Shown here: in pieces, positions 1,679 through 55,105 of the stretch
Layout of the letters: every line of letters starts with the position of its first letter
Numbering within the stretch: the stretch's first letter is position 1
Source of the DNA: a virus
Taxonomy: Duplodnaviria; Caudoviricetes
Strand: one strand, 5' to 3'
Virus record (IMG/VR): IMGVR_UViG_3300011008_000034
Coordinates: 96,001 to 160,000 of that record
DNA length: 64,000 bases
The notes under the pieces: model-generated
The model's database searches: none
Told to the model about the DNA's origin: nothing
The model's input: the letters and a program-made list of their open reading frames with translations, nothing else
Made by a program: the position numbers and the translations under genes

Positions 1679-3013
1679 TTGAAAAAGAATAATCATAAGA
1701 AAAAACACATAATTCAACATCCTATAGGTATTTCTTTTATTAGTAAGGATTTAAATAAAGAAAAATATGAGCAGATCAAGATTTTTACAAAAAGAATAGT
1801 AGAATGTAAAAATTATATGTCTGCTTATTATTATTGTATGTATCATTTTAAACGTACTATATCTAAAAATGATTTTTGTAAGGAAATGAAAAATAATAAA
1901 ATCGATCAAGCTTTTGATATTCCTAGCGGAATTTTTCAACAAGCTTGTTATGATGTTTGGTCTAAATATTTCAAGAAAAAACCTCCTAAAAAAATAGTGA
2001 CATTTAAAAAATTATCTTTTATAGGTGTAAATACCACTTCTATTCCTATGTTTATGAAATCTGATAACATTCATACTAATGGTATTATTAATTTTAATAT
2101 TCCTAAACAAGGGATTATAGCTATTCCTTTTAAATATTCTAAAAAATATCATGGGGATTTAACAAAAATTCATTATTCTATGAAAGGTAAAGGAGGATAT
2201 CAATATCAAAAATTATATCGATTAACTATAAATGAAGGTACTGAAACCATAAAAATTTCTATTACCGAAGAAAACAAAGATTATTATGAATTAGAATATG
2301 ATAAGCAAAAAATTTTAGGTGTAGATGTTAATATATCTAGAAATTTATTTGCTTGTAGTGATGGTTATTTTATAGAACACGATAAAAAATTGGTGCAAAA
2401 ATTAATTAATCATGATTTAAGAAATAGACAAACCATAAAGACAAAAAAGAAAAGGGGATTATCAGAAGAACATAGTAAGAAACAGAAAATTATAGATGAA
2501 CGAGATAAAAATAGAGCTAAATGGCATATTATTACTAAATTATTACAGCTTTTTAAATATGCAAAAAGAATGGGATATAACCATTTGGTATTTGAAGATT
2601 TATCTCCATTTTATGGAAAAAAGTATATAAAAAGCAAGTATAATGATGTTAATCAAAATGAATTAATGCATATCTTACATTTTTTTGATATAAAAAATGC
2701 AGCTATAGCATTAGGAAAAAAGTATGGTTTTTTAGTAAGCACAGTACCTGCAGCATATACATCAAAAGGTTGCCCGATTTGTAGTCATATTCATAATGAT
2801 AATAGAAAAACACAATCTCATTTTAAATGTATGTGTTGTGGACATACTTATGATGCAGATACTAATGCTGCTTTAAATATCAAACAAAGAGTTTCCTTAG
2901 AGGTTCTAAGGAATCAAATGGCTACCAAAAGAGAAAAGCAATGTTATGATGCTAAAGATTTAACATTGAAAGAAGTTAAACAAATCATAACAGATTATCA
3001 TTTAACGGCTTAA
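1679..3013 (+). CDS. tnpB: TnpB-family RNA-guided nuclease (divergent N-terminus, no tnpA)
   Basis: RuvC-I GVDVN, RuvC-II VFEDL, Zn finger CPIC...CMCC and RuvC-III DADTNAALNI. Confidence 0.85.
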   Translation: MKKNNHKKKHIIQHPIGISFISKDLNKEKYEQIKIFTKRIVECKNYMSAYYYCMYHFKRTISKNDFCKEMKNNKIDQAFDIPSGIFQQACYDVWSKYFKKKPPKKIVTFKKLSFIGVNTTSIPMFMKSDNIHTNGIINFNIPKQGIIAIPFKYSKKYHGDLTKIHYSMKGKGGYQYQKLYRLTINEGTETIKISITEENKDYYELEYDKQKILGVDVNISRNLFACSDGYFIEHDKKLVQKLINHDLRNRQTIKTKKKRGLSEEHSKKQKIIDERDKNRAKWHIITKLLQLFKYAKRMGYNHLVFEDLSPFYGKKYIKSKYNDVNQNELMHILHFFDIKNAAIALGKKYGFLVSTVPAAYTSKGCPICSHIHNDNRKTQSHFKCMCCGHTYDADTNAALNIKQRVSLEVLRNQMATKREKQCYDAKDLTLKEVKQIITDYHLTA

Positions 3014-13483: not shown

Positions 13484-14845
13484 TTACGAATCAGAATCTT
13501 CTTGTTTTTTCCATGCATCAAATTCTTGTTCTACTATATTCATCATATGAAATGCTTTTATAAAATGTAAATCACATGGTTCGCCATCACGTGTTTTAAA
13601 TGATTCAATAATACCATCATGATCAGATGTTGAACGAATTGCAAAACCAAAATCTAAATGGTCTGAAATCTGGTCTGACTCAGCTACGTGTTCAGTACCA
13701 GCACGTCCATTTTTCATTTGTGTTTCTGACTTACCTGCTCGAGTCATCTGTGCAGCTGAAATCACGATTTTCATTTTTCTTCGAGCAAACTGTTTTAATT
13801 CTAATGCAATATTACCTAAATTATCTCTTTTAACATCGGTTACAATATTAGGCTGCATAATCTGTGCATAGTCTATAATTACTGAATCAAATACTATTCC
13901 TAATTTTTGTTCTATTTCTTCAGTTTTTGTTTCAATCATTGCAGGCGTGCATTTTCCAGGAATATCAACAATATAAAATTCTCCCAACTGGTTTCCTTTT
14001 CTATCTTTTTTTGTTTTTATTTGGTCTAAGTAATCATTATATTTTTTCTCTTCAGCGTCTGTAAGTGTTCCCATTTTTAATCCTTTTATTGGGACACCAG
14101 CTGCACGAGAATCGAAACGTCTCATATAATCTTCTTTGGACATTTCCAATGAGAATAAAATAACATTTTTTCCTCTTCTCCAAAAATGATATCCAAAATT
14201 TAACATTAAAACAGATTTGCCGTCGCCTTTGCGTCCAATAACATAAATTAAATTTCCATACATAAATCCGCCAATGGATTTATCCAATTGTTTAAATCCA
14301 CTGGAAATAATATTTAATTTTTCCGGATGAAGTTTTCTGTCTTGATACATCATCCTACGTTCTTCTACATCATCTTGAATGCTTCCTTGTCTAATTGAAG
14401 AGTTCCCTATGGAATTTAACTTTGATAACCCCTGGGCCATGTCTGAAATTGTTTCTGTAATGGAATCTGCTTCTTTATTAATAACTTTATCTGCTCCAGC
14501 AGACAATATCTGTTTTGTAGATGCAACTTTATAATTATTTAAAACCCTGTTAGCCATTACTCGATAATTTGAGTAAGGGTCTGAAATATTTTGATTAAAA
14601 TCTTTTTCAGATAAAGTCAATCTATCCATCATAGGGAAATTAACTACATTCGCATTAACTCGCCCATTCACTTCATTAAATGCAGCTTTTAATCTTATAA
14701 ATAATGATTTTGTTTTAGGAGACGTAAAATAATCTTCTTGAAGCATTGACATAGCTTCTGGTAAAACACTTTGATTTTGCCAAATAAAGGATAATAAATC
14801 TAATTCTGTAGATTCATGATTTTCTTTTTTTACTTCATCCATCAA
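13484..14845 (-). CDS. dnaB: DnaB-like replicative helicase
   Basis: SGFKQLD..IGG, GRKGDGKS, FSLEM, IIDYAQ and AAQMTR. Confidence 0.9.
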   Translation of the reverse strand: MMDEVKKENHESTELDLLSFIWQNQSVLPEAMSMLQEDYFTSPKTKSLFIRLKAAFNEVNGRVNANVVNFPMMDRLTLSEKDFNQNISDPYSNYRVMANRVLNNYKVASTKQILSAGADKVINKEADSITETISDMAQGLSKLNSIGNSSIRQGSIQDDVEERRMMYQDRKLHPEKLNIISSGFKQLDKSIGGFMYGNLIYVIGRKGDGKSVLMLNFGYHFWRRGKNVILFSLEMSKEDYMRRFDSRAAGVPIKGLKMGTLTDAEEKKYNDYLDQIKTKKDRKGNQLGEFYIVDIPGKCTPAMIETKTEEIEQKLGIVFDSVIIDYAQIMQPNIVTDVKRDNLGNIALELKQFARRKMKIVISAAQMTRAGKSETQMKNGRAGTEHVAESDQISDHLDFGFAIRSTSDHDGIIESFKTRDGEPCDLHFIKAFHMMNIVEQEFDAWKKQEDSDS

Positions 14846-14946
14846 TATGCCTCCTTTTTTATTCTTTTTTTACTTCATCCATCAATATGCCTCCTTTTTT
14901 AATTAATCTTAAAATTCAGGTTGTTTACCTTAAAATTCAGGTTGTT
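14822..14946. repeat. Two local tandem duplications (40 bp x2; 18 bp x2)
   Basis: 14822-14861 equals 14862-14901; CTTAAAATTCAGGTTGTT occurs at 14908 and 14929. Confidence 0.9.
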
Positions 14947-15688: not shown

Positions 15689-16915
15689 TTAAAAATGATG
15701 ATTAAACTTCCACATAACATAACTTTCAATCATAGCATACGTTTTTTCTTCAAATAATGTACCTTCATATTGTTTCTTTAATGCATCAAATTTAGAATTC
15801 CGTTCAAAATCATGGTAATTAGCGAAATCAATTAATTCTTTATCAGGATTTAATTTAATCTTATACATAAATTCCGAATAATTATAAGATTCATCAAAAG
15901 CACCATTTAAGATAATATCTTTTATGTCAGAATAAAAAGAATCTACTACTTCTTGTGGATAATCACTAACTTTATTCTTAAACTGAATAATATTAGATAA
16001 AATAGTAGGAATATCATAATGAGGTTTGTTTTTAATAATATCATGAATATAATCTGGAAAAAAGTAGATAGAAGTAACATTCTTTTTTATCATATTATCA
16101 ATAACCATAACTGCATCATTATATGATAAATTATTATCTTTCATTGTGGTTTTAATTCTATCTACCTGAGCGACGAAACGTTTTTTATCAATTTTTAATC
16201 CAAGATTATTGTAAAACATTTTTACTAAATATGGAACTGAAGGCTGATTTAATTCCATAGCATATTGATAAAAACGTTGTGATTCTTCAATTAAATATTT
16301 AGCATCTGAGATTTTTGAATGCCCGGTTTCAGCTGTATATCTAAGCAAAAATTTAACTTGTTCTGGAGTCAATTGATATGTAAAATACAAAGATTTTATA
16401 CAAGCTGTAGCAATAATAAAATTAAATTCATATACGTCCCAGAATGAATAAAAATATTTTGCTAAATTCATAGGTTTATATTCTGAATCTAATTTTTGAA
16501 TAAATTCTTTTTCTTGTTTATTTTTAAATTGTCGCATTTCTATCATTTTTTGATATTCTAATGCTTTTTGTTTTTGTTTTTCTAAAGCTTCTGCAGCTTT
16601 TTGTTTACGTCTTTCTTCTTTTTCAGCTTCCAATTTAGCTTGTTTTTCTTGTTTTAAACGTTCTTTTTCTTGACGTTCTTTTTCTTTTTCTTGTTCAATT
16701 TGTTCTTTTAATTTCCCTTCAGCATCATATTTAGAAATAAAATTATCAAATAACTGAAAATTAGAATCATATACTTCCTGATATTCTTTTGATTTTTTCT
16801 TTAAGATTTTTATTGCTGAATATAAAAACTGATGTTTTTCATCAGATTTTTTTAAATGATTTGCTAATTTTAATGGAGTTTCAAATTCTTCTCCACAAAG
16901 TGGACATTTATCCAT
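15689..16915 (-). CDS. Hypothetical protein with N-terminal C2H2 finger and coiled coil (possible replisome organizer)
   Basis: CPLC...LANH.....H; lies upstream of the loader and helicase genes. Confidence 0.55.
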   Translation of the reverse strand: MDKCPLCGEEFETPLKLANHLKKSDEKHQFLYSAIKILKKKSKEYQEVYDSNFQLFDNFISKYDAEGKLKEQIEQEKEKERQEKERLKQEKQAKLEAEKEERRKQKAAEALEKQKQKALEYQKMIEMRQFKNKQEKEFIQKLDSEYKPMNLAKYFYSFWDVYEFNFIIATACIKSLYFTYQLTPEQVKFLLRYTAETGHSKISDAKYLIEESQRFYQYAMELNQPSVPYLVKMFYNNLGLKIDKKRFVAQVDRIKTTMKDNNLSYNDAVMVIDNMIKKNVTSIYFFPDYIHDIIKNKPHYDIPTILSNIIQFKNKVSDYPQEVVDSFYSDIKDIILNGAFDESYNYSEFMYKIKLNPDKELIDFANYHDFERNSKFDALKKQYEGTLFEEKTYAMIESYVMWKFNHHF

Positions 16916-19219: not shown

Positions 19220-22200
19220 TCATACTGTTACCTCAAAATCTTTTATCACAAATTCTTCTTCTTCCTCATATAATTTTCTTCTGCATCTTGCGTGACGATG
19301 AAAAATAGGAGTCTCATCGTCAAAATCAAAAACAAAACACTTGTTTTTCCCAGGATATAAACGCATTACACGTCCAATTCTTTGATATGCTTTACATGAC
19401 GATTTGCCTCCACCTGCTAAAATCAATGTATCAAGTTTTGGTAAATCCAATCCCTCGTCTGCTATTGTGGACGAAATAATCAATGTACAATACCCGCGTT
19501 TTACTCCTTCAAAAACAACTTGTCGTCTATATATGCTATCGTCTCCAGATAAAAATTCAATATTAGCTACTGTTTCTTCTACTTCAGTTCCATTATCATT
19601 ATAGATAAATTTTGTCTCTTTTTTCCCTAAAATATTACATAATTTCTCATACAAAAATTCGCCATGACGAACATATTTAATTAAAAGCAAAATTGTACGA
19701 TTACGTTTATACATCTGATAAGCAATTTTACAAATAATCTTATTCCGATTCATGTTATCTACAATTGCTTGTTCATATAATTTAGCATAATTTTTCCCTG
19801 AAAATCTTCCTGAAATAGGAACAAAATAAATATATGGACGAATTAAATATCCTAATTGGATTAATTTTGAAGCAGTAATAGCTTTACTGGGGTCACGTTT
19901 TGTCAATAATGCATCAATTAACATTGAGTCTCCAGAATCTCGCCAAGGCGTCGCGCTTACACCAATACGATAGTATGCATTAGTACATTCTGTAGCTACT
20001 TTTAAAAATGTATCTGCAGGAACATGATGACAATTACTCACCACTGCATCATTGGTCACAAAATTATGGTTATCTGCTACAGTAATATCATATACATATT
20101 CAGTATCATCATCATGAACATATTGAAAATCATATACTTTTCCAACAATTGGTTCAATTATAGTATAATAATCTTTTGCTCTAGTAGCTTTATATAAATC
20201 GTGATATGTTTGATAAATAGTATCTCCTGATTTATAAGAAATTTTAGTAGTAATAATATCTTCACCATATAAAATCCAATCAGCTCTAATATATTCTTGA
20301 CGATTATCTACCCAAATTTTATGATTATTTGTACACGTAATAATAGTCTTTTCATGATTAGCTGTTTTTACAAAAATCTTGCACATTTTCCTATCACCAA
20401 TAGGGATTTTAGAATAATTAGTAATAGGTTTAGATTCAAAAAATTTACGAGTAGTATTATATGTAATAACATCAAAATGGTCGCCTTTTTCCATTCTTTC
20501 TACAATATTCCCAATTGTAGTATAAGTTCCATTTGCCAATAATACTGTAGCATAATATGGGCAACATTCATCAAATAAAATCATATTAGCTTGTTTAGCT
20601 ATATCAATATCTGCAGATTGGATTGACATAACAGTAATATCTTTTGGTTCATAAATTCCATCACCAATGAATCCAATTTCTCTGCCTAGGAATTTTTGAA
20701 ATTCTTGTTTTAATTGTACACAAAGAGAAATTTTATCAGCAAATACACAAACTGGAGATACTTTAAACTTAGCTATTAAAGCGGCCATAATTAAAGTATT
20801 ATGCGTTACAATAAAATCATTGCAAATAAATGTATGGTCTTCACTATCCACAGCAATACATTTCATTTCTGAAAATTTTCCCGTTTTCTCAACATTAACA
20901 ATTTTTAATAAATCATAATAATGTCCTTTTGTTTGAGGTGCTTTTGCAAAACGTTCATTATGTTTTTTAGAAGAAAACAACTTATTATCTTTTCCACATA
21001 CACGAACAGAACAATCATCGGTCGTTACATTTCTATCTTTATAAAAACGCTTGCCAATTTTTAAACTTGCACGATATCCTAAACTAAGAATTAAATAATA
21101 AACATCTTTTGCAAGTTGTACACTAGTAGTACCAAAACTTACATGACCTTTTTCATCAACGTGACCATCTGTATCAATCAACCCGCGTAATAATTCGAGA
21201 CGGTCTTCTTCTGAAGCAGTCAAATATTCTTGTGGAATAAATTTTTCACCTGATTTTGTGCCTTTGAACGTATTCCAAATATAATTAGTTAATGGATTGT
21301 TACGACCACCAACAAAATGTTTTTGAATATGAGTAGTATCTTTACGACGTTTAAAGAATCCAAATTCTTTTACAGATTCATTAAGTTTATCAAGAATATC
21401 ATCTTCAGGATTTGTGAATGTAATTACTCTACCAGTAAATCCCCCATCACCAAGCAACACTCCTAATGCATAAGGTGGAATTGGTAATTCTTTTTTAGGA
21501 AATTGTATTGGCTTACAAACTGGAATAGATAAAGTATATCCATGACCAGGAACTTTTACACGATATTTTGATACCATTTCTTCAATAGTAGCTACTCGCC
21601 ATTGTGCACTATGTTCTCTTATTCCATTTGACATAAATTTCCATAAATGGTCTTTACAACATTTTACAGTAGAACCATCACGAAAAGTTATTAACCATTC
21701 TTCTTTTTTTCCTTGAGGATATTCGCCAATTACTTTTGTTGGTTTTCCAAAACCATCAAACACAGTATCTCCTACATGAATATCTGAAAGAGGGACAAAT
21801 CCATTTGGCGTTAAAATTGGAGTATCTAATGGCATAGCCTTGCCCGCTCCAGTGGCTGCTTGAATTACCTCACGAGGATTGCATATATCTATAACTTCTT
21901 TTTGATAATCTCTTATCTTTAATGGATTTCCATTAATCTCTTTTACTAAAGAATAATCTGCATCAGAAATTGGTTTTATTCTTGTATCGATTAATTTATA
22001 AGCAATATGACATTCTTTACAATAATCAATAACATCTTGTAAAAGACCGGCATATGTCTTTTTTGTTTTACGATTAAATAAATGACGATATCTTACTTCC
22101 ATGCTTCCAAATTCTTCTACTGGAAAAGATAATTTTGCCCATAAATTATACATTTGATCTTTGGTCATATTATTAACTTTTAAATAAACATTATCTAAAA

Positions 22201-22288
22201 TTAATTCTACTGGAGCATCTTCACCTAAATCATCTAATGATAATGACTTTGTTTTAATTTTAGGGGGTGTAATATTTTGTAGCTTCAT
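19220..22288 (-). CDS. SF2 DNA helicase (UvsW-like) containing two inteins
   Basis: RDYQ, ATGAGK/T, FDE/CHH, SATPWR, EGLDLP and QRIGRVMR, after removing the two inteins. Confidence 0.9.
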   Translation of the reverse strand: MKLQNITPPKIKTKSLSLDDLGEDAPVELILDNVYLKVNNMTKDQMYNLWAKLSFPVEEFGSMEVRYRHLFNRKTKKTYAGLLQDVIDYCKECHIAYKLIDTRIKPISDADYSLVKEINGNPLKIRDYQKEVIDICNPREVIQAATGAGKAMPLDTPILTPNGFVPLSDIHVGDTVFDGFGKPTKVIGEYPQGKKEEWLITFRDGSTVKCCKDHLWKFMSNGIREHSAQWRVATIEEMVSKYRVKVPGHGYTLSIPVCKPIQFPKKELPIPPYALGVLLGDGGFTGRVITFTNPEDDILDKLNESVKEFGFFKRRKDTTHIQKHFVGGRNNPLTNYIWNTFKGTKSGEKFIPQEYLTASEEDRLELLRGLIDTDGHVDEKGHVSFGTTSVQLAKDVYYLILSLGYRASLKIGKRFYKDRNVTTDDCSVRVCGKDNKLFSSKKHNERFAKAPQTKGHYYDLLKIVNVEKTGKFSEMKCIAVDSEDHTFICNDFIVTHNTLIMAALIAKFKVSPVCVFADKISLCVQLKQEFQKFLGREIGFIGDGIYEPKDITVMSIQSADIDIAKQANMILFDECCPYYATVLLANGTYTTIGNIVERMEKGDHFDVITYNTTRKFFESKPITNYSKIPIGDRKMCKIFVKTANHEKTIITCTNNHKIWVDNRQEYIRADWILYGEDIITTKISYKSGDTIYQTYHDLYKATRAKDYYTIIEPIVGKVYDFQYVHDDDTEYVYDITVADNHNFVTNDAVVSNCHHVPADTFLKVATECTNAYYRIGVSATPWRDSGDSMLIDALLTKRDPSKAITASKLIQLGYLIRPYIYFVPISGRFSGKNYAKLYEQAIVDNMNRNKIICKIAYQMYKRNRTILLLIKYVRHGEFLYEKLCNILGKKETKFIYNDNGTEVEETVANIEFLSGDDSIYRRQVVFEGVKRGYCTLIISSTIADEGLDLPKLDTLILAGGGKSSCKAYQRIGRVMRLYPGKNKCFVFDFDDETPIFHRHARCRRKLYEEEEEFVIKDFEVTV
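20033..20566 (-). mobile_element. Mini-intein (178 aa) in the DExH motif
   Basis: FDE|CCPYYATVLLANG...TCTNNH...VYDITVADNHNF...VVSN|CHH. Confidence 0.88.
20798..21838 (-). mobile_element. Ala-start class 3 intein with LAGLIDADG endonuclease, in Walker A
   Basis: GAGK|AMPLDT...VTHN|T. WCT triplet present (DHLW, MKCI, VTHN), plus LGVLLGDG and LRGLIDTDG. Confidence 0.88.
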
Positions 22289-27976: not shown

Positions 27977-30900
27977 TTAGTTTTTAAATTTTCCTAATTC
28001 ACTTGTTATTAATCCTTTTGCAGCTGCTCTTTCATATGATAAAAATTGACTAAAACTTACATCAAATTTATTTGCATCATAATATTTACTGCATACGTCA
28101 TATAATCCACTTTTAGTTTTATACAATTTTGTAATTAACCTTACATCTACATTATCATTTTCAAATCCGGAAATAAATTTACTAATTAATTTCCGAGCTT
28201 CAGGCGTATACAAATATGTTAAACGATATGTTTCAAAATCTCTATATCCACAATCGTTAATACAATAATCAGTCCTAGTATTAAAGAAACGTTTATTCAA
28301 TAAAGCCATTTTTGTTTCTAATAAATTGAATTTTATTGCTTCATAATAGCTTTTTAATTCTGTTTTTGAAAAATACGATTTTTTCTTAATGAATGTACCA
28401 TTAGCGCTTGTATAATGATCAAGCATATGTCTATTAAATTCCGAATAAATATTATTGAAAATAACATCAAATTTCACCGATAATTCAACAATTTTTTTTC
28501 TTAATTCTTCAATTCCTGTTTCTGTTTTTCTTAATTCATTGAATATATTATTTGATAATTCTTCATCAACTATATAAACCATAACACTAGACAACATTTT
28601 CATAAATGCCTTTTTCGGATTACTTATTTTTTGATGAGTAAAATAATCACTAATATCGCAAGCCAATAATGTTTCTTTATCAGCTACAATCCCATCAGTC
28701 TTTGTAACTTTAATTATAGCATGACTATTGTATATATCCTTATAGAACATCTTTAATTGTTTATCGGTATATCTTGTAGTAAAAATATTTTCAACATAAT
28801 CATATCTGCATAATTTTGAAATATTCTCAACTTTTTTCATAATCTCATCTGTATTAAACGTTGATTTTAAATTAATGCATGTATATCCCTTTACAAATTT
28901 ATTATAATTCATTTGAGGAATACCAAATTCCTTACTATCAATGTAATAAAGATTAAATAAATTTAAATATTGATAAATCATCATATATTGATATCCCAAT
29001 TTTTCTTGACAACCAAATATAATTTCATTTACTGTATCAATCAAATTTGCATTTATGACAAAATATCCATTTCGGACAATATTTTGATAATTACTATGGA
29101 AATTCAAAAATATTGTAATGGCTAATACGCGAATTGCTTGAGCACAATATTCAAATACATTTTTATTTTTCCGATTTTTTTCCTCAAATTTTTCTACCAA
29201 TTTATATAGAGATAAAATATAATTATCAACTTCTTTATTTCTAAGACCATAATAGAAAATCTTATCGCATTTATCATTACGAAAAGCTTTATTAAAGAAT
29301 GCAACACATTTTGATTCAGAAATTCCACGTTCGTTAAACGTCTCAAAAACATTTCCTACGGTTTTATTTTCGCCCTTTATTCTAAGTGGATCACTAGAAA
29401 AATTGTGTCTACCATTAGGAAATTTTTTCTCCGTTTCACTCACTTTTTCAAATGGAATAAATCCTTTAAAATGAGCTAGATTAATACATTTTCCTTTTAA
29501 TGGATTATCTCCATGACGTTCATAATCTGATAATTCGGCTAATTCATTTAATGATTTTTTTAAAGAAAATCCACGATCTTTAGCATAAAACAATTTTAAG
29601 ATATAATCCTTCCCACCTTCATAATCATTTTTTACAATATAATCACATAACTTATTTTGTGATTCAACGTAAGGAGCATTTTTATGATGATGGAATTCTT
29701 TTCTAAATGACTTAAATGCTTGATAATCTTCAGGTTTATCAGAATAGAAACACCATGAATTTTTTAAAGAATACGTATCTTCATGTTTTGTCAAAATGGT
29801 CTGAAGTTTCTCCATAAGTTCTCCAGGAGAATGAAGACATGCTAAATTTTTAGGATCTTTTAAATCCTTTATATATCTCAAAACAGATACAGGAAAATCT
29901 TTATTGTCATGTTTCATATGAACGCTATACGGAAATCTAAAAATACGCACAGGTGTAAAAGTGGCATTCATATCTATAGGAATTTCATATCCCAATGCAA
30001 TGCCTAAAAAGTAAAATAACTCTTCTAAATGTTCATAAGACAAATAACCACAATCTTCTTTTAAAATATTATGATGATATTCATAATCTGCTTTGTTTAA
30101 ATAATACGTTTTATCCAATGACAAAACAATCTGAAAACCATTACATGATTCAATCTTAGCTGTTAAATTCAAACCATATTTCATCATAACATGTTCAATT
30201 TCAAGATTCATCTGTTTTTTCAATTCATCTTTCTTTTCTTTGGAGGAAAAGTGAATCTTTTGTTCTACATTCTCAAATAAATCAATATCGAACATCAATG
30301 TACGAATAAATTTCATTGAATTCTTATCACGATAAATTTTTAAATCTGTTAAAATAAATTTTGAAAAATCTTCACTCTTATGTTTTTTTCTTAACTGATG
30401 AAAATACTTCTTTTTCTCATCATCAGTCATTGTGTTTATATGATTAATTAAATCAAGTTTCGCGTTAGTGTCATTAACATAAAATTTATATGTATTATTT
30501 TTATGAACATCGTGAACTGCTTGAGCTGTATAAATATTACAAATCTGAAAAGCTCCCTCAATATCGCCATTTTGCATTCTTTCATAAGATTGTTTTGCCT
30601 TGTCAAGATATTGGTCTATATTATAATAGTACACATCTTTAAAAGACTGATATGCAAGAACATATTTTTCACCCTTGAATTTACGATATTCTTTCATCGA
30701 AACTTTTTTCTTTTCATGATCGTTTATTTTAATATAGAATTCAGCATTAATAATCCCTTGAGAAAGACAAAGACCATTTTTGAATGTATCTCCATATACA
30801 GCATATGCATAATCCTCTAATTGCTTTTTAACTTTCCCGTTTTCAATATCATCAAGAGAATTCTGAATACTTTTTTGCGAATTTCTAAGACCATTATCAC

Positions 30901-31702
30901 AAAATTCAATAAAACTATCTCCCTTGAAAAGTGTTTTCCGCTCTTTATTTACTAACTCTTCATTAGGATAAAAATCACCATTAAACGATTCAATGATTAC
31001 AGAATTATTTTTTTTGTGTTTCGCACGTGGCTCATCTTTAGCAGTAAGAATATAATGTTCCTCAGTAAATGACTTGTTATTACGTTCATTAGTATAATAT
31101 ACTTCATTACAATATTGACGAATAGATGGTATTTTTTCAACAACTTTTTTAAATTCTTTCTGAAATTTTTGCGTAGCTTCAATTTTATTACATTGACTTA
31201 ATTTAATTTTTTCTCGAGACACATCTTTTGAATTATCTTGATTTTCTTTAACATCTTGTAATGAAATGTTATTTGATTGAATAACTTCAGGTTGAACAAC
31301 TTCTACTTCTACTTGTTTAGGTTGAATATTCTGAATATTCTTCTTTTTATTTAACTGAGGATTTAATTCTTCGTGAACAAATACCAATTTATATTTAGAA
31401 TCAAAATATTCCGTGCTTTTCATATTATTGTATGTTTCAATAACACCTTGTTCTTCTTCAGGTTTTACGAACCATTTCTCTCTTGTATCTAAAGATTTTC
31501 CTTGATGTGATTTATAAATTGCATCGAAATCTTCATTAATATCTTGACATAATATCTTTGCGGCCTTATCATCTAACTCAAGACCATATTGATTATCTGG
31601 ATTAATGTATATATCATAAATCATTTCACCAGTATAATGATTTTTCAACTTATATTTTGTCTGCTGAATCTGAGCATAGGTTTTATCAATTCTATTATAC
31701 AT
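27977..31702 (-). CDS. 1241-aa protein with central AEP/RepB-primase-like domain
   Basis: MFDIDL, IESCNGFQIV and IDMNA...RIFRFPYSVHMK resemble AEP motifs I-III, with Q in place of the usual His. Confidence 0.55.
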   Translation of the reverse strand: MYNRIDKTYAQIQQTKYKLKNHYTGEMIYDIYINPDNQYGLELDDKAAKILCQDINEDFDAIYKSHQGKSLDTREKWFVKPEEEQGVIETYNNMKSTEYFDSKYKLVFVHEELNPQLNKKKNIQNIQPKQVEVEVVQPEVIQSNNISLQDVKENQDNSKDVSREKIKLSQCNKIEATQKFQKEFKKVVEKIPSIRQYCNEVYYTNERNNKSFTEEHYILTAKDEPRAKHKKNNSVIIESFNGDFYPNEELVNKERKTLFKGDSFIEFCDNGLRNSQKSIQNSLDDIENGKVKKQLEDYAYAVYGDTFKNGLCLSQGIINAEFYIKINDHEKKKVSMKEYRKFKGEKYVLAYQSFKDVYYYNIDQYLDKAKQSYERMQNGDIEGAFQICNIYTAQAVHDVHKNNTYKFYVNDTNAKLDLINHINTMTDDEKKKYFHQLRKKHKSEDFSKFILTDLKIYRDKNSMKFIRTLMFDIDLFENVEQKIHFSSKEKKDELKKQMNLEIEHVMMKYGLNLTAKIESCNGFQIVLSLDKTYYLNKADYEYHHNILKEDCGYLSYEHLEELFYFLGIALGYEIPIDMNATFTPVRIFRFPYSVHMKHDNKDFPVSVLRYIKDLKDPKNLACLHSPGELMEKLQTILTKHEDTYSLKNSWCFYSDKPEDYQAFKSFRKEFHHHKNAPYVESQNKLCDYIVKNDYEGGKDYILKLFYAKDRGFSLKKSLNELAELSDYERHGDNPLKGKCINLAHFKGFIPFEKVSETEKKFPNGRHNFSSDPLRIKGENKTVGNVFETFNERGISESKCVAFFNKAFRNDKCDKIFYYGLRNKEVDNYILSLYKLVEKFEEKNRKNKNVFEYCAQAIRVLAITIFLNFHSNYQNIVRNGYFVINANLIDTVNEIIFGCQEKLGYQYMMIYQYLNLFNLYYIDSKEFGIPQMNYNKFVKGYTCINLKSTFNTDEIMKKVENISKLCRYDYVENIFTTRYTDKQLKMFYKDIYNSHAIIKVTKTDGIVADKETLLACDISDYFTHQKISNPKKAFMKMLSSVMVYIVDEELSNNIFNELRKTETGIEELRKKIVELSVKFDVIFNNIYSEFNRHMLDHYTSANGTFIKKKSYFSKTELKSYYEAIKFNLLETKMALLNKRFFNTRTDYCINDCGYRDFETYRLTYLYTPEARKLISKFISGFENDNVDVRLITKLYKTKSGLYDVCSKYYDANKFDVSFSQFLSYERAAAKGLITSELGKFKN

Positions 31703-31863: not shown

Positions 31864-32463
31864 TTATTCACAGTCACTAAATAAAGGAACTAACATTTTT
31901 TCAATCATCTTAACACTTTTTTTCATCATTGAATCAGTTATAGGATTATATAAAATAATTTGACTTTGGGTCTTAAATTTCCCTTCACGTTTACATTTAT
32001 AAAAATCCAAAGCAAATTGTGCAAACGAATCTTTATCAATTTTTTGTCTTGAACATTTTACTAAAATAACATATTTATGTGAAAAATATGTAAAATAATC
32101 TTCTTGTGTACATTTTATTTCAAATACTGGATTCAACAAATCAATATACAATAAAAATTTCATTAAACTAAGATATGGGAATGTAGCAACTAAATTATAT
32201 TCACAATCTAATTCTGAATCTGACAAAAATTGCCTGTACTCTTGTTCAAATTTATCTTTATCTTCTTGTTTATCCCAATTTTCTTTTTGATGATTCAAAA
32301 AAAAGTCAATTAATTGCAATGCCAAATCATAATGTTCGTTAGATAAATTTAATTTTCCTCCAAATGATTTCATTTTTACATCAAATAAATTTTCATACAT
32401 AGGATTCGTTAAGACTTCATTAAGTACATCTTTCATAATATGAACTCCTTCTTTATTAGACAT
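31864..32463 (-). CDS. Hypothetical protein, possibly a degenerate PD-(D/E)xK nuclease fold
   Basis: D.......VILVKCS.......AQ..L....IILYNP pattern. Confidence 0.45.
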   Translation of the reverse strand: MSNKEGVHIMKDVLNEVLTNPMYENLFDVKMKSFGGKLNLSNEHYDLALQLIDFFLNHQKENWDKQEDKDKFEQEYRQFLSDSELDCEYNLVATFPYLSLMKFLLYIDLLNPVFEIKCTQEDYFTYFSHKYVILVKCSRQKIDKDSFAQFALDFYKCKREGKFKTQSQIILYNPITDSMMKKSVKMIEKMLVPLFSDCE

Positions 32464-32544
32464 TTATTATCACCTAAATTAATTTTAGATAAAAAGGCTT
32501 TTCTATTTATCTTTTGTTTCTATAGTTTTCCTTATATTTTTCAT

Positions 32545-33792
32545 ATGCAAAAAAGCGTGCAAAATCAATGGTTATCCGGATAAGGTCTCATGATTGTTTC
32601 TTAATTTAAAATAATTTCACTACTACTAGCATATGTATGATATGTTTAGGCATTTTCGCCTCGGTGTCGGAAGTGAATACAGTGAACTTATTTCTCTAAA
32701 GTACTTTAAATACTTTTCTTTAGTAAATTAAATTAGTTAATTAATTTAGTAAAAAATATTTACTCATAACAGCATGCTTTAGCATGCATGAAATTATTAG
32801 AAACTAAAGAGAAAGTAAATTAACTTTAGTATATTAATTTTATCTTAGATTAGTAAAGAAAACTAGAATCTAATCTCATAAGCATGCTTTAGCATGCATG
32901 ATAAAAGATAGTAAAACTATTAAAAAAAAAAAGTTTAGTACCAGGTACTAATTTTTTTTAAAGAATTAATTTCTTATAAAGTAAATTTAGTAGAGAGTAT
33001 TTATTCATAGTAGCATGCTGAAAGCATGCATGAATTTACTAGAAACTAAAAAAAATATAATTAATTTAAGTACTTATCTTAAAATTATTTTTTAGTAAAG
33101 AAAGTTAAAGTCTAGTTTCATAGACATGCTTCAGCATGTATGATAAAAGACAGTAAAAATAACTAAAATAAATTTTAGTATTAAATTCTTTTTTAAGAAA
33201 ATTAATTTTTAGTACCTAGTACTAATAAAGTAAATTTCATAAGCATGCTTCAGCATGCATGATAAAGACTAATTTTAGTTTACTTAATAAAAATAAGTTA
33301 ATAGAGCGCTCCAGAGAGCGCATAAAAGAAAATAAAAAATAAATTAAGACTAAAAGTTATTTTTAATAAGTTAATCTATTTCATGAAGGCTTTCAACCTT
33401 CTATTATGAAATTTATTTTCTATTAGATAAAATTTTAACTACAGTTAGTTTTTTAGTATTTCATTTAATTTCTAGTAATTTCATGCATGCTAAGCATGCA
33501 GTTATGAATAGATACTTTCTATTAGATTTACTTTAGTAAAATTAATCTACTTAAAGAAAGTTAATTTACTTAAAGAAAGTTAGTCTACTTTAAGAAAGTT
33601 AATCTATTTTTAGAAAGTTAGTACTAAAAGTACTTCTAAAGGAATTAAGTAAAGTAAGTACTCTTAGTACAGTGAGGCACCAATATGCGTGTACTACTAA
33701 TCATACATGCTAGTAGTAGTAAATTATGTTAAATTAGGAAACGGCTGTCAAGCCTTATCCAGATAACTAGAATTTTGCACGCTTTTTTGCAT
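32545..33792. repeat. Non-coding locus bounded by ~95-bp imperfect inverted repeats, with seven TCAT..GCATGC-loop-GCATGC-ATGA-type hairpins (candidate origin or structured RNA locus)
   Basis: Arms at 32545-32640 and 33701-33792. Hairpins at 32764, 32876, 33005, 33118, 33237 (forward) and 33381, 33481 (reverse). Confidence 0.85.
33542..33617. repeat. Four tandem 19-bp iteron-like repeats
   Basis: TTAATCTACTTAAAGAAAG consensus x4. Confidence 0.85.
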
Positions 33793-34023
33793 TCATACTT
33801 AAGACTCTTAGTTCACTGTAGAGACATTTTTCTGAAATGCGTTATAACTTCTATTCTTTAGAGACTTTTATTCATTAGATCGCCTCTCATGAGGCGACTT
33901 AAAGAGAAATAAAAGGAAATTTATTTTAGTAAAAGAACTAAGATAAATAAGGACTAAGTTCATATGTTTGCACTATTAAAAAAAAGACTAAATAGTCAAA
34001 AAGTCAAACTTATAAAAAAACTA

Positions 34024-34052
34024 TGTACATCTTTGTATTTTTATGGTAAAAT
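34024..34052 (+). promoter_or_regulatory. Promoter for the ligase operon
   Basis: AAACTA-TGTACA-17 nt-TAAAAT with TG, a variant of the shared promoter. Confidence 0.55.
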
Positions 34053-34069
34053 AATCTAAGTAAAGGAGT

Positions 34070-35965
34070 GTGATTGACATGATTAGAGAAGCACATTTGC
34101 AGTTAATTAAACAATATGATCACGAATATTATGATTTAGATAATCCAAGTATTAGTGATTTAGAATATGATAAACTAAGAAAAGATTACATTAATTTATA
34201 TGGAAGCAAAGATTTAAATTACACTCCAGGAAATGTTAAAGCAGATTTTGAGAAATTCAAACATCCTACACCTGTAGTTAGCTTAGATAAATGGACTAAA
34301 GATGTAGATGATAAAAAAGTTTTTATTAAGAAATGCAATGAATTTTGGCCTGTAGAAATACAGCCAAAGTATGACGGGCTTACGGTCGTGGTTTATCCGA
34401 ATTCTGATGGCACTGGTAAGTTTGTTACTCGTGGTGGAGGAGATGTAGGAGAATTACTTCCTAATTTTATTCCTCAGTATGAGGGCAAGGTTTATTTAGG
34501 AGAAAAGTTTCCTATTCGTGGTGAAGTTTTTATTTCACCTGAGAACTTTATTACTTTAAATAAAAGATTAGAAGCTGCTGGGGAGAAATTGATGAAAAAT
34601 CCTCGTAATGCAGCTGCAGGATTATTGCGGAGAAAAGAACGCAGTACTAATCTTGATTTGTTAAGCTTTATTACATATGATATTCCAGGCAGTGAAATGA
34701 CTCCGGAAGAAATGAGACAGTATATTAAAGAAAATACTGTTTTTCATTTTACTAAAGGCTATACTTTTGATAAAGATACCATTTATGATGATATCTGGGG
34801 ATTATATGACAAGATTAAAAATGAATATCCTATTGATGGATTGGTTATGAAATCTTGTCAGGAAAATAGTTTGACTAAATTTGGTAGTACACAACATCAT
34901 CCAAATAATGCTCTAGCCATTAAACCAAGTAAAGTTACTTATCGTACTGTGATTAAAGATGTTATTTGGACTAATGGCAGAAAAAAGGTTACTCCTGTAG
35001 CTATTGTAGAACCAGTAGAAATTGATGGAACGACAGTATGTAAAGCTTCTTTGCATAATATGGATATGATTAAAAAATTAGGGATTAAAATTGGAGCAGA
35101 AGTAGAGATTTATAAGGCTAATGAAATTATTCCTCAGATTGACAGAGTAATTAAGAATGGATATAAAGAAATTGAGATTCCATTATGTCCTTCCTGTGGT
35201 CATGTATTAGAAAATATTAATGGTCAACAGTTTTGTACAAATCCTAAATGTAAAGAGAAGATTTGTCAAAATATGGCATTCTTAGGACAGAAAAATGTTT
35301 TGAATATTGAAGGATTGAGTAACGAAACTGCTCGGAAAATCGTGGAAAAATTTGGATGTAAAAACCAAAATGATATCTTCGATTTAGATGAAGATGATTT
35401 AATGACACTTCCAGGATTTGCTGAAAAATCTGCTAAAAAGTTATTTAATAATATTCAAAACAGCAGGCAGACTACGTTTATCAAATTTATCAAAGCTTGT
35501 TGCTGTGATGGAATTGGAGAAAATGTAGGAAAGATTTTATATGAGCGCTATAATGGGTTAGATAATTTTAGAAATGCAATATTTAAACAAAGTAAAATCA
35601 AAGTCGAAACTGAATTATCTGAACTAAAAGGATTAGGACAAGTAGCGATTAAAAAACTGATGTCCAATGAATTCTGGGACGCGGTTGACCATTTAGCACA
35701 TTATATTGAGATTATTGAAGAAAAGAAAAATGAAGGAAAATTTGCTGGTCAGGTATTTGTATTAACTGGAAAAATGGAACATCCTAGAAGTTATTACATT
35801 GATTTAATAGAACGTAATGGAGCTAAAGAAGGAAAATCCGTTTCTAATAGTACTAATTATTTGGTTATTGCAGATATTAATAGTACAAGCAGTAAAGCTA
35901 AAAAAGCTAGAGAATTAGGAACGGTTTTGATTTCTCCAGAACAATTGGAAGAAATGATGAGGTGA
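34070..35965 (+). CDS. ligA: NAD-dependent DNA ligase
   Basis: YY....P.ISD.EYD, KYDG, RGEV, NPRNAAAG, DGLV.K, C4 Zn finger, HhH and C-terminal BRCT. Confidence 0.95.
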   Translation: MIDMIREAHLQLIKQYDHEYYDLDNPSISDLEYDKLRKDYINLYGSKDLNYTPGNVKADFEKFKHPTPVVSLDKWTKDVDDKKVFIKKCNEFWPVEIQPKYDGLTVVVYPNSDGTGKFVTRGGGDVGELLPNFIPQYEGKVYLGEKFPIRGEVFISPENFITLNKRLEAAGEKLMKNPRNAAAGLLRRKERSTNLDLLSFITYDIPGSEMTPEEMRQYIKENTVFHFTKGYTFDKDTIYDDIWGLYDKIKNEYPIDGLVMKSCQENSLTKFGSTQHHPNNALAIKPSKVTYRTVIKDVIWTNGRKKVTPVAIVEPVEIDGTTVCKASLHNMDMIKKLGIKIGAEVEIYKANEIIPQIDRVIKNGYKEIEIPLCPSCGHVLENINGQQFCTNPKCKEKICQNMAFLGQKNVLNIEGLSNETARKIVEKFGCKNQNDIFDLDEDDLMTLPGFAEKSAKKLFNNIQNSRQTTFIKFIKACCCDGIGENVGKILYERYNGLDNFRNAIFKQSKIKVETELSELKGLGQVAIKKLMSNEFWDAVDHLAHYIEIIEEKKNEGKFAGQVFVLTGKMEHPRSYYIDLIERNGAKEGKSVSNSTNYLVIADINSTSSKAKKARELGTVLISPEQLEEMMR

Positions 35966-53386: not shown

Positions 53387-53514
53387 CTGTTATATTTAAC
53401 TAAAAGTTAAATTTGCTATTTCATCGAACCCCATTTTGTCGAAACTAATTTGGTTTGTATAGTTCTCAATAGCTTAAAGTTGTAACAACAACTCTAAAGT
53501 TAATACTTTTCTTA
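53387..53514 (-). ncRNA. Putative omegaRNA scaffold (5' boundary uncertain)
   Basis: Structured region between the tnpB stop and the intron end: GCUAUU...AAUAGC long stem, GAAC/GUUC inner stem and a terminal AUUUAACU-UUU-AGUUAAAU hairpin. Confidence 0.65.
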
Positions 53515-54669
53515 TTAAGTATTATACTTTTCTAAATTTTTAGCTGCATTTAAATCTCGATCTATTATTAATTTACAAATTGGACATTTATATATTCTAA
53601 CATTTAATTTTAAATTCTTTTTTATATGTCCACAGTTTGAACATGTTTTTGAGCTAGGATAAAATCTATCAGCTAATACAAATTCAATTCCTTCAAATTT
53701 ACATTTGTATTTTATTTGTCGCTTAAATTCATAAAATTTTTGTTCAGATATACTTTTTGCAAGATATTTATTTTTCATCATTCCTCTAACATTTAAATCT
53801 TCCATCACAATTCGTTTTGGATGTTGATTAATTAAAAACCTTGTTATTTGATGAATATAATTATTACGTATGTTAGTTTGTTTTGCACATAATCTTTGAT
53901 ATTTTTGAACTTCTTTAAAATATCTATTTGAACAACGTATTTTATTTTTTTTATTTATACGATATTTTCTAGCCAAATTTCTTTGAACATGTTTTATTTG
54001 TGATTCTAATTTTTTCATTTTTTTAGATCGATTAATATTATTAAATGCGAATTGTTTATTTCCAAAAGAAACAACAGCTAATTTTTTTACTCCAAGGTCA
54101 ATACCCATACTATCGTTATTTGCATTATTATTATTATTTACTTGGTTATCGTATTTTAATGCAAATGATAAAATCCATTTTCCATTTTTTAATGATATTC
54201 TAGGATTAATTGCGTGTAATTTAAATCTTCCCAATGGAAAATTAAATTTTGTTTTACATTTTACTTTTCCGCATTTTTCAATATTTACTAAATTTTTTGT
54301 TCGAAAATAAACATTCGTTTGACATGTAGGAAAAGATAACTTTGTTTTATGCTTACTTTTAAATTTAGGATATCCTTGATTTCCATTGAAAAAATTTTGA
54401 AATGCAAAATGCATATCGGTACATATTATTTGTAATGATGCATTGGCTATTTCTTGAAGCCAATCATGTTGACCATCATATTTTAAATTTTTTGTTATTT
54501 CCATCATGTCAAATCTTGATATATGTTTATTGTTTAATTTATATTCATTATTTTGACATTCAAGTAAATAATTATATATATACCTGCAACATCCTATATG
54601 TTTTAAAAATAATTCTTCTTGTTCTTTTGTTGGATATAACCTTATTTTATAACCTTTTATTATTGTCAC
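53515..54669 (-). CDS. tnpB: TnpB RNA-guided nuclease (intron-encoded)
   Basis: KGYKIRLYPTKEQ N-terminus, GIDLG, VMEDL, CSNC/CPIC and DRDLNAAKNL; GTG start after AGGAGG. Confidence 0.95.
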   Translation of the reverse strand: MTIIKGYKIRLYPTKEQEELFLKHIGCCRYIYNYLLECQNNEYKLNNKHISRFDMMEITKNLKYDGQHDWLQEIANASLQIICTDMHFAFQNFFNGNQGYPKFKSKHKTKLSFPTCQTNVYFRTKNLVNIEKCGKVKCKTKFNFPLGRFKLHAINPRISLKNGKWILSFALKYDNQVNNNNNANNDSMGIDLGVKKLAVVSFGNKQFAFNNINRSKKMKKLESQIKHVQRNLARKYRINKKNKIRCSNRYFKEVQKYQRLCAKQTNIRNNYIHQITRFLINQHPKRIVMEDLNVRGMMKNKYLAKSISEQKFYEFKRQIKYKCKFEGIEFVLADRFYPSSKTCSNCGHIKKNLKLNVRIYKCPICKLIIDRDLNAAKNLEKYNT

Positions 54670-54699
54670 AATTTTCACCTCCTTTATAATTAAATAAAA

Positions 54700-55105
54700 G
54701 AAATGAATAAATTTAACTACCGTTCGTTAGACGTGTTAGCTATTTTATAGCTCTCTTATTTTCATAAGAGCATAGACTATATCATTCTCACCATATCATT
54801 TCATTTTATAAAACGAAATGACTTAGGTTTTGTCCCCCACTTCCCAGTCACTTGACCAGTACGAGCATTTCAGCTACATAGTCGTTGAACCTTCCTCTTT
54901 AATAAAAGGAGGATTGGCTGCGGATTGCCCAATTCTTAATGTTTTTACCATACATGAGTAATTAATTCATCCATAATAATATCACTATTATTATTTGGTA
55001 ATTAAGACTCTAAGGGGTTTCCCGCAATTCGAGGGAATACATATAATACGTTTCCATATTATACGAACTATTTCATATTAGAAAGTCGATATCTAATATG
55101 ATTTA
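54700..55105 (-). ncRNA. Group I ribozyme core
   Basis: P at 55018-55029, Q at 54917-54926, R at 54879-54890, S at 54775-54786 and P9 at 54753-54770. Confidence 0.9.

Follow-up and report, generated by a model that had tools for sequence, protein, structure and literature searches.

Inverted arms, iterons and a strand-polar hairpin array in a non-coding locus of an uncultured giant phage: a candidate accessory replication origin

The oriV of the IncQ plasmid RSF1010/R1162 combines, within ~400 bp, iterons with the ssiA and ssiB hairpins that are primed by the RepB' primase. Lambda ori and P1 oriR carry four or five 19-bp iterons beside an AT-rich region, whilst among the origins of Staphylococcus aureus pathogenicity islands (SaPI) and phage-inducible chromosomal islands (PICI) the SaPI iterons are arranged mirror-wise round an AT-rich core, and phage P4 possesses two cis loci, ori and crr, that share iterons. 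Orientation-specific imperfect hairpins that function only as single-stranded DNA (ssDNA) are known from the rolling-circle single-strand origins (sso), the G4- and phiX-type priming hairpins and the phage N4 virion RNA polymerase promoters, the latter with 5-7-bp stems and 3-nt loops, and the F plasmid centromere sopC consists of 12 repeats of 43 bp, each with an inverted repeat. To our knowledge, replication initiation has not been worked out for the phage-G-like giant phages (400-560 kb). Here we describe locus A, a non-coding element at positions 32545-33792 of a 64,000-nt window (the whole stretch of DNA analysed, corresponding to bases 96001-160000 of a 177,647-bp IMG/VR virus contig). 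Locus A is tentatively read, with rather less than even confidence, as an accessory origin-type cis element in which iterons would act as double-stranded DNA and hairpins as single strands.

Locus A has a defined anatomy, hairpins conserved beyond what is expected at random, motifs shared with a second non-coding locus of the same contig (locus B) and a setting among genes of DNA metabolism. All features listed in the original prediction were recovered where it had placed them or close by. An independent ENA assembly (contig L172, 66.8 kb) contains the locus sequence with one mismatch in 2.4 kb, hence locus A is not an assembly artefact. It is also non-coding as predicted, in that no open reading frame (ORF) of more than 32 aa lies wholly within it, and the largest ORF overlapping it (47 aa, 32440-32583) starts upstream of its left edge. 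The GCATGC sites of the 177-kb contig are concentrated here (10 of 18, a 166-fold enrichment), as are the plus-strand hairpins of the form TCAT-stem-ATGA, seven of the ten on the contig being in locus A, one in locus B and two elsewhere, compared to 0-5 per shuffled genome. The inverted arms, predicted at ~95 bp, were confirmed as segments of 93-97 nt that align with 81% identity (E 5e-18) and of which the outer 21 nt form a perfect inverted repeat:

32545 to 32641, plus strand: left inverted arm, with the 21-nt perfect terminal repeat at 32545-32565 and the conserved ACTACTACTAGCAT
32572 to 32583: left-arm palindrome TTATCCGGATAA
Within the left arm: weak promoter-like stretch with an AATAAT -10 and no good -35
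33700 to 33792, minus strand: right inverted arm, with the 21-nt perfect terminal repeat at 33772-33792 and again ACTACTACTAGCAT
33755 to 33766: right-arm TTATCCAGATAA
33723 to 33751, minus strand: best sigma-70-like promoter match of the region, TTGACA-17-CATAAT, 11/12

Between the arms, the five forward hairpins that had been described at intervals of about 110-130 bp start at 32764, 32876, 33005, 33118 and 33237 (spacings of 112, 129, 113 and 119 bp), the alternation of A and B units is apparent as a superperiod of 241-242 bp at 80-84% identity, and the two reverse copies are located at 33381-33409 and 33481-33507. Each unit proved to be longer than first described, forming a three-tier hairpin of ~45 nt in which an outer helix of 3-4 bp round a small internal loop leads to an invariant TCAT/ATGA, a bulge on the 5' side only (2 nt in type B, 4 nt in type A) and an upper stem of 6-7 bp. 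In type A the outer helix is AATA/TATT or AGTA/TACT; in type B it is ATCT/AGAT, GTCT/AGAC or AGT/ACT:

32755 to 32798, plus strand: hairpin F1 (type A), outer AATA/TATT, TCAT/ATGA, 4-nt 5' bulge, GCATGCT/AGCATGC
32868 to 32909, plus strand: hairpin F2 (type B), outer ATCT/AGAT, TCAT/ATGA, 2-nt bulge, GCATGC stem
32996 to 33040, plus strand: hairpin F3 (type A), outer AGTA/TACT, GAA loop
33110 to 33151, plus strand: hairpin F4 (type B), outer GTCT/AGAC, upper stem ACATGC/GCATGT
33229 to 33270, plus strand: hairpin F5 (type B), outer AGT/ACT
33306 to 33321, unstranded: GC hairpin GCGCTC-CAGA-GAGCGC, meeting point of forward and reverse units
33374 to 33418, minus strand: hairpin R1, foot TTTCAT/ATGAAA, 4-nt bulge, upper stem GAAGGTT/AGCCTTC
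33474 to 33516, minus strand: hairpin R2 (type A), 89-93% complementary to F1 and F3

The GC hairpin had been taken as the centre of a mirror-symmetric array; the hairpin itself is present, but the arms are centred near 33168 and it does not mark the centre of symmetry. The two halves are unequal, with five hairpin units in one and two in the other, the left half having gained an extra 242-bp double unit.

The conservation of these hairpins follows their pairing. In the upper stem, all 49 cells of the seven units are paired (100%) and three changes are double-sided, a combination reached by none of 500 shuffles. The three tiers of type A are paired in 95% of cells, also with three double-sided changes (matched by 2 of 500 shuffles for both cells paired and covariation score, and by 15 of 500 for double-sided changes), whilst type B is 97.6% paired with four double-sided changes (5 of 500 shuffles). 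When the 3' partners were shifted by 1-3 columns, pairing fell to 7-48% in all three sets. Both variant stems singled out in the original prediction are present in the sequence, namely the compensatory ACATGCT/AGCATGT of F4, a unit which relative to F2 has compensatory changes in its upper and its outer helix, and the rewritten GAAGGTT-GAA-AGCCTTC of R1. In R1 the foot and bulge are kept and 3 of 7 upper-stem positions are rewritten, by two compensatory pairs and a T.G wobble that is found on the minus strand only, the strand that matches the orientation of R1. The asymmetric 5' bulge, together with unit orientation, changes strand between the two halves of the locus. The earlier suggestion of selection on single-strand structure is supported by these data, in that all three helices stay paired through double-sided changes and the R1 wobble is strand-matched. 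Insofar as sequence can tell, asymmetric covarying three-tier hairpins with strand polarity indicate a folded single strand.

A different class of repeat lies between R2 and the right arm:

33526 to 33620, plus strand: iteron-like tandem array, 19-bp period, 4.4-5 copies, consensus AAAGTTAATCTACTTAAAG

The array was scored at 33538-33620 as 4.4 copies of 19 bp with 87% matches, five copies being in register, and it is thus of the kind found in iteron origins (tandem repeats of ~17-22 bp in at least three copies). Its core recurs in a second non-coding region:

Contig 29507 to 31177 (L130:508-2178): locus B, gene-free, ~1.6 kb, 65 kb upstream of the window and 98 kb from locus A

Locus B forms one large, imperfect palindrome, in which arms of 80 nt and of 53 nt each match at 89% and an alignment over 480 nt at 70%. 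All contig copies of four motifs, each a 9-11-mer, were found to be confined to loci A and B: the iteron core TCTACTTAAA (5/5) and AAGTTAATCTA, CCTTATCCG and ATGTATGATA (3/3 each). The two loci additionally have CTAAAGGAATTAAGT and CTCTTAGTwCAsTGAGGCA in common. Within locus B the iteron core occurs at 18-bp spacing and in both orientations, accompanied by three CCTT-N7-AAGG hairpins with TCAT/ATGA-like feet, and the GC-richer outer parts of the locus contain GGAATGGAA / GAAGGATG motifs in repeated copies, together with strong local hairpins. Because the shared motifs occur in both orientations, and at 18-bp intervals in locus B, they fit double-strand protein-binding sites, and together with the iterons they indicate that such sites are probably present in both loci. 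The iteron array and the related locus B, neither of which figures in the original prediction, are the best arguments for a role of locus A at the DNA level. To the right of the arm, the shared box CTCTTAGTTCACTG recurs at 33805-33818 with the same sequence as in locus B, and a GC hairpin of 7 bp, TCGCCTC-TCAT-GAGGCGA (~33881-33900), also falls within 33793-34069; on account of these two features the functional region may reach up to the ligase gene.

The genes flanking locus A diverge from it, in agreement with the original prediction:

27977 to 31702, minus strand: 1241-aa orphan gene, with DxD / SCNGFQ / RIFRFP motifs
31864 to 32463, minus strand: 199-aa gene (left flank), transcribed away from locus A, no family match
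34070 to 35965, plus strand: NAD-dependent DNA ligase (right flank), transcribed away from locus A

On the left side are encoded a primase, a DnaB-like helicase, a DnaC-like loader, an intein-bearing SF2 helicase and two orphans of ~1200 aa, and to the right, beyond the ligase, a DEAH helicase. Locus B is bordered by RuvC, SbcD and SbcC on one side, and on the other by two genes of no known function followed by that for Pol III alpha. This DNA-metabolism context of both loci fits an origin.

The proposed origin would operate in four steps. A sequence-specific protein would bind the 19-bp iterons and the shared arm motifs as double-stranded DNA, upon which the adjacent, easily melted AT-rich body would open, possibly aided by transcription from the inward arm promoter. 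The three-tier hairpins would then fold on the exposed single strands, the forward units in the left half (plus strand) and the reverse units in the right half (minus strand), and could act as loading or priming signals from which synthesis departs in both directions. Locus B would bind the same protein or proteins via the common iteron core and the other motifs. This model is preferred because it is the only one to make use of both iterons and hairpins; hairpins of the ssi type, lying on opposite strands and kept as structures, are represented here by five forward and two reverse units with pairing of 95-100%. Locus A would probably form, together with the adjoining orphan genes, a lineage-specific accessory cassette.

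The contig has a GC content of 28% and a CheckV completeness of 36%, implying a genome of ~490 kb. Its nearest cultured relative is Bacillus phage G (497.5 kb), the SbcD-like protein being 35.6% identical to gp356 and the RuvC 50% identical to gp349; relatives of this RuvC form a graded identity series on contigs of 420-560 kb. On the strength of these similarities and of the RuvC series, the source is, as judged from its proteins, an uncultured phage-G-like giant phage. A phage-wide promoter class, AAAACTATTTACA-N14-TGnTATAAT followed by a GGAGG ribosome-binding site and a start codon, has 18 exact-core copies on the whole contig, with examples in the window as follows:

1632: AAAACTATTTACA-N14-TGnTATAAT promoter
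3544: the same
11556, minus strand: the same
12613, minus strand: the same

This conserved promoter and its GGAGG, of a class typical of low-GC Gram-positive hosts, suggest a host within the Bacillota.

Several observations weigh against an origin. Cumulative GC skew, by which the original prediction had proposed that an origin might be recognised, makes no origin-type turn on the contig (~36% of the genome), and a local switch simply follows the gene strand. No DnaA-box cluster was found. The duplex is least stable in a 200-bp window at 33036, which ranks about 12th on the contig (top 0.4%) and is not unique; such instability is only moderate and non-exceptional there. No recognisable initiator was identified, the 199-aa and 1241-aa proteins being without a family match, and the 1241-aa protein is no more than a possible AEP-like primase (archaeo-eukaryotic primase). 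As to the hairpins, the covariation sample comprises only seven paralogous units of one genome, and intrastrand template switching can produce apparent compensatory changes in quasi-palindromes without selection. Furthermore, conservation is lacking: locus B is absent from the syntenic relative L200 (65% RuvC identity), in which the flanking genes are 53 bp apart compared to 1671 bp here, and is replaced in an 82% relative by an unrelated spacer of 387 bp. Locus B is hence not the core origin of the clade, and both it and the 1241-aa neighbour, which has no relative below 97% identity, are lineage-specific accessories; the lineage specificity of locus A is extended from these two, rather than taken from a syntenic comparison of its own. 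The contig L009, from the sample ENA ERZ28612963, encodes the 97% homologue of the 1241-aa protein and ends after the first 275 nt of the non-coding region. This stretch, like the left arm within it, is 93.8% identical to the window, compared to 86-92% for the third codon positions of the neighbouring genes, which hints at mild constraint at most.

A bidirectional origin and a pair of structured non-coding RNAs, the two possibilities raised in the original prediction, are still the best readings on the available sequence, and they are compatible with each other, since transcription can activate an origin. The RNAs, which we regard as doubtful, would be convergent, with a minus-strand start near 33715 and a possible plus-strand start near 32625, and would each carry several sense three-tier hairpins to titrate, or be processed by, an RNA-binding protein of phage or host (as a sponge/decoy or a small-RNA precursor). 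The best promoter match of the region does face inward from the conserved right arm, in the same direction as the left-flank genes, and is followed by the conserved ACTACTACTAGCAT; however, 11/12 matches are expected by chance at ~0.13 per locus, so that this single one is only a ~8-fold surprise, it differs in type from the phage's own AAAACTATTTACA-N14-TGnTATAAT class, and the left arm has no good -35 either in the window or in L009. Hairpin-unit orientation agrees with the direction of each putative transcript, and the R1 wobble would be G.U on the sense strand and C.A on the other, yet the hairpins have no strand preference in stability, sense and antisense energies being equal. Mismatches between the arms and between the halves lean to plus-strand G.U (15 versus 6-8), a weak lean that was not seen in locus B when tested as a rod-like RNA (22 G.U versus 24 A.C). 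The predicted folds of both putative RNAs are far more stable than those of shuffled sequences (z -7.8 and -5.6), although these low scores are due in part to the inverted repeats themselves. Two terminator-like sites, the first listed here and the GC hairpin at 33306-33321, would also suit transcripts:

32922 to 32958, unstranded: terminator-like site, A11 - TTAGTAC-CAG-GTACTAA - T8, only 2 G-C pairs, between F2 and F3
33208 to 33226, unstranded: second TTAGTAC-N3-GTACTAA palindrome, without a T run

The first of these, which the original prediction had not brought out, has the look of an intrinsic terminator working in both directions; its minus-strand fold has -5.4 kcal/mol with a T run after it, and it was missed by a stricter terminator scan. 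After the GC hairpin, a U tract is missing on the plus strand and weak on the minus strand. The seven GCATGC hairpins all lack a following T run, and hence they are not intrinsic terminators in the sense of a G+C-rich hairpin with a U tract. An anti-defence role would accord with a lineage-specific, fast-changing accessory locus, but Rfam 15 gave no match to locus A at the gathering score or even at E<=1, and the RNAs would leave the 19-bp array and the both-orientation motifs of locus B unexplained.

It is improbable that locus A is instead a double-strand site array for a dimeric DNA-binding protein without any part in replication, whether for centromere-like partition, as a regulatory sink or as a replication fork trap of opposed polarity, with the hairpins serving as inverted-repeat operators. 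Regularly spaced inverted repeats inside longer units do recall the sopC centromere of the F plasmid, a distance of 9-11 bp (roughly a helical turn) separates the two GCATGC half-sites, the opposed polarity of the halves has the appearance of a fork trap and the motifs are common to locus B. Nonetheless, a dimer that reads sequence would not tolerate the rewriting of the R1 upper stem, in which pairing and foot are kept, and the conserved asymmetric bulge and an outer helix that covaries across non-complementary internal loops are features of a folded single strand. Very improbable is a selfish or switchable segment, whether a non-autonomous transposon akin to miniature inverted-repeat transposable elements (MITEs) or an inverton (invertible promoter), since, despite the perfect 21-nt terminal inverted repeats with TCAT on both outer flanks (a possible 4-bp target duplication that could be chance), the insertion-like appearance of locus B beside its 53-bp syntenic counterpart, the TnpB-like genes in the genome and an inward promoter that after inversion would read toward one or other flanking gene, the terminal repeat and hairpin array are single-copy in 177 kb instead of dispersed, similar DNA did not turn up in the collections searched (phages, viral contigs, metagenomes and species genomes), the locus, at 1.25 kb and with elaborate internal repeats, is untypical of a MITE, no recombinase or transposase domain is encoded by the genes next to locus A, the orientation is identical in both assemblies and the left junction is the same in L009.

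Searches for other examples of the locus were negative. No match to locus A or its 8-kb surroundings was returned by blastn against 50,697 phage records, and in IMG/VR the patterns of the hairpin, of the arm palindrome and of the CTCTTAGT..TGAGGCA box had 0 matches. The hairpin scan of metagenomes retrieved 120 stretches, all of them lone chance matches or unrelated GCATGC-rich DNA, whilst the same pattern in 185,579 species genomes produced 34 single chance matches and no array. A CRISPR repeat or RNA anti-CRISPR mimic was discarded as a candidate, there being no array in species genomes and the intervals of 85-100 nt being mutually similar, in contrast to unique spacers of 26-72 nt. A crude scan of the intergenic gaps of phage G detected no comparable hairpin array. 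Relatives in IMG/VR were sought via the 199-aa protein, the ligase and the DnaB-like helicase, and nothing was found; ligase homologues of 55-59% identity were located on contigs of 200-340 kb without synteny. Two metagenome fragments unrelated to locus A, L052 (Ga0194129_10207811, 1184 bp) and L025, have 39-42% GC with dense GCATGC/CATGCATG repeats and GGGCC-loop-GGCCC hairpins, and are another kind of hairpin-rich non-coding DNA. A giant-phage-sized ENA contig with a 59% ligase homologue (k141_59853, 253.8 kb) encodes type IV CRISPR-Cas-like genes (Csf1, Csf3, Cas6 and a DinG-like helicase; L136:11952-17675), followed by a gene-free stretch of 1.8 kb that is probably an array. Elsewhere in the window, an Rfam group I intron (78 bits) adjoins a RAGATH-18 RNA (55 bits) between two large tail-region ORFs (53413-55084, minus strand), and a TnpB-like ORF with a Cas12f1-like TNB domain is encoded at 1679-3013.

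The original prediction had linked the 1241-aa protein to primase activity, a link that is not supported. The protein has no match in Pfam, PHROGs or PDB, its first 1200 residues yielded no useful match with HMMER, the AEP Pfam models PF16793, PF22548 and PF09250 found no match on the contig, and a single-sequence AlphaFold2 model of residues 430-730 was unusable (pLDDT 39). The only pointers to an AEP are a language-model similarity of 0.92 to AEP clusters and the resemblance of the visible DxD, SCNGFQ and RIFRFP motifs. Amongst 1.8 billion cluster representatives, the 97% homologue was the only relative, none of lower identity being present, and phage G has no homologue. A 408-aa protein (15689-16915), also without a family match, is encoded directly upstream of the DnaC-like loader and DnaB-like helicase, the position where lambda and SPP1 hold an origin-binding initiator; between 16505 and 16720 its gene includes repeats of the TTCTTTTTCTTG type, and these could represent an internal origin or no more than a charged coding stretch of low complexity. 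At the junction of the loader and helicase genes is a perfect 40-bp tandem duplication (14822-14901; 2.0 copies, 100%) that appears to double the ribosome-binding site and start region of the DnaB-like helicase. The SF2 helicase gene (19220-22288) is interrupted by intein and LAGLIDADG domains, and that of Pol III alpha (contig ~36-39.5 kb) is likewise split, with an intein fragment.

Loci A and B provide concrete, testable origin candidates that comprise iterons and an unusually large strand-polar hairpin array. If they are origins, they would represent an accessory, exchangeable origin cassette in a giant phage and suggest a function for two large orphan proteins; if RNAs are made, these would form a new class of repeated-hairpin RNA. 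Either result would explain assembly breaks at this place, such as the end of L009 in the left part of locus A. A bolder proposal, which we consider unlikely, is that the 1241-aa and 199-aa genes and locus A make up an undescribed self-contained replicator cassette, its giant diverged AEP-like enzyme reading hairpin arrays on both strands, or that the arrays are a new class of phage RNA decoy, locus B being in each case a second site of the system.

Amongst described systems, the RSF1010/R1162 oriV has in common with locus A an iteron array of ~20 bp, an AT-rich stretch, ~40-nt hairpins on opposite strands in inverted orientation and, adjoining locus A, a candidate primase gene. Locus A differs in the number of its hairpins (seven, forming two opposed arrays, where oriV has one on each strand), in its length of 1.25 kb and lack of sequence similarity, in a neighbour without a RepB_primase model match and in its residence in a ~490-kb phage rather than a small plasmid. 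The 19-bp period and four to five copies of its iterons, beside AT-rich DNA, recall lambda ori and P1 oriR, yet lambda ori lies inside the initiator gene, without a hairpin array or large inverted arms, whereas the 408-aa gene in the initiator position is here 16 kb from locus A. With the SaPI/PICI and P4 elements it shares the accessory cassette, in which a replication gene stands beside a non-coding origin, and loci A and B share iterons as does the P4 pair; those origins are, however, under 300 bp and without conserved multi-tier hairpins, whilst loci A and B are 98 kb apart and no primase-helicase is recognisable here.

The sso, G4, phiX and N4 hairpins are similarly orientation-specific and imperfect, but are single or in threes rather than in an array of seven units; none of their defining sequence motifs was recognised in locus A, and no genes lie downstream of its hairpins for a promoter role of the N4 kind. 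The sopC centromere is comparable in its tandem longer units with one short inverted repeat each, though its unit is 43 bp compared to ~120 bp, polarity reverses within the locus A array and the stem covariation favours a folded strand over a duplex binding site. Should the origin reading hold, locus A would be most like an iteron origin with ssi hairpins, and would differ from it in scale, in the number and architecture of its hairpins and in its motif-sharing partner locus.

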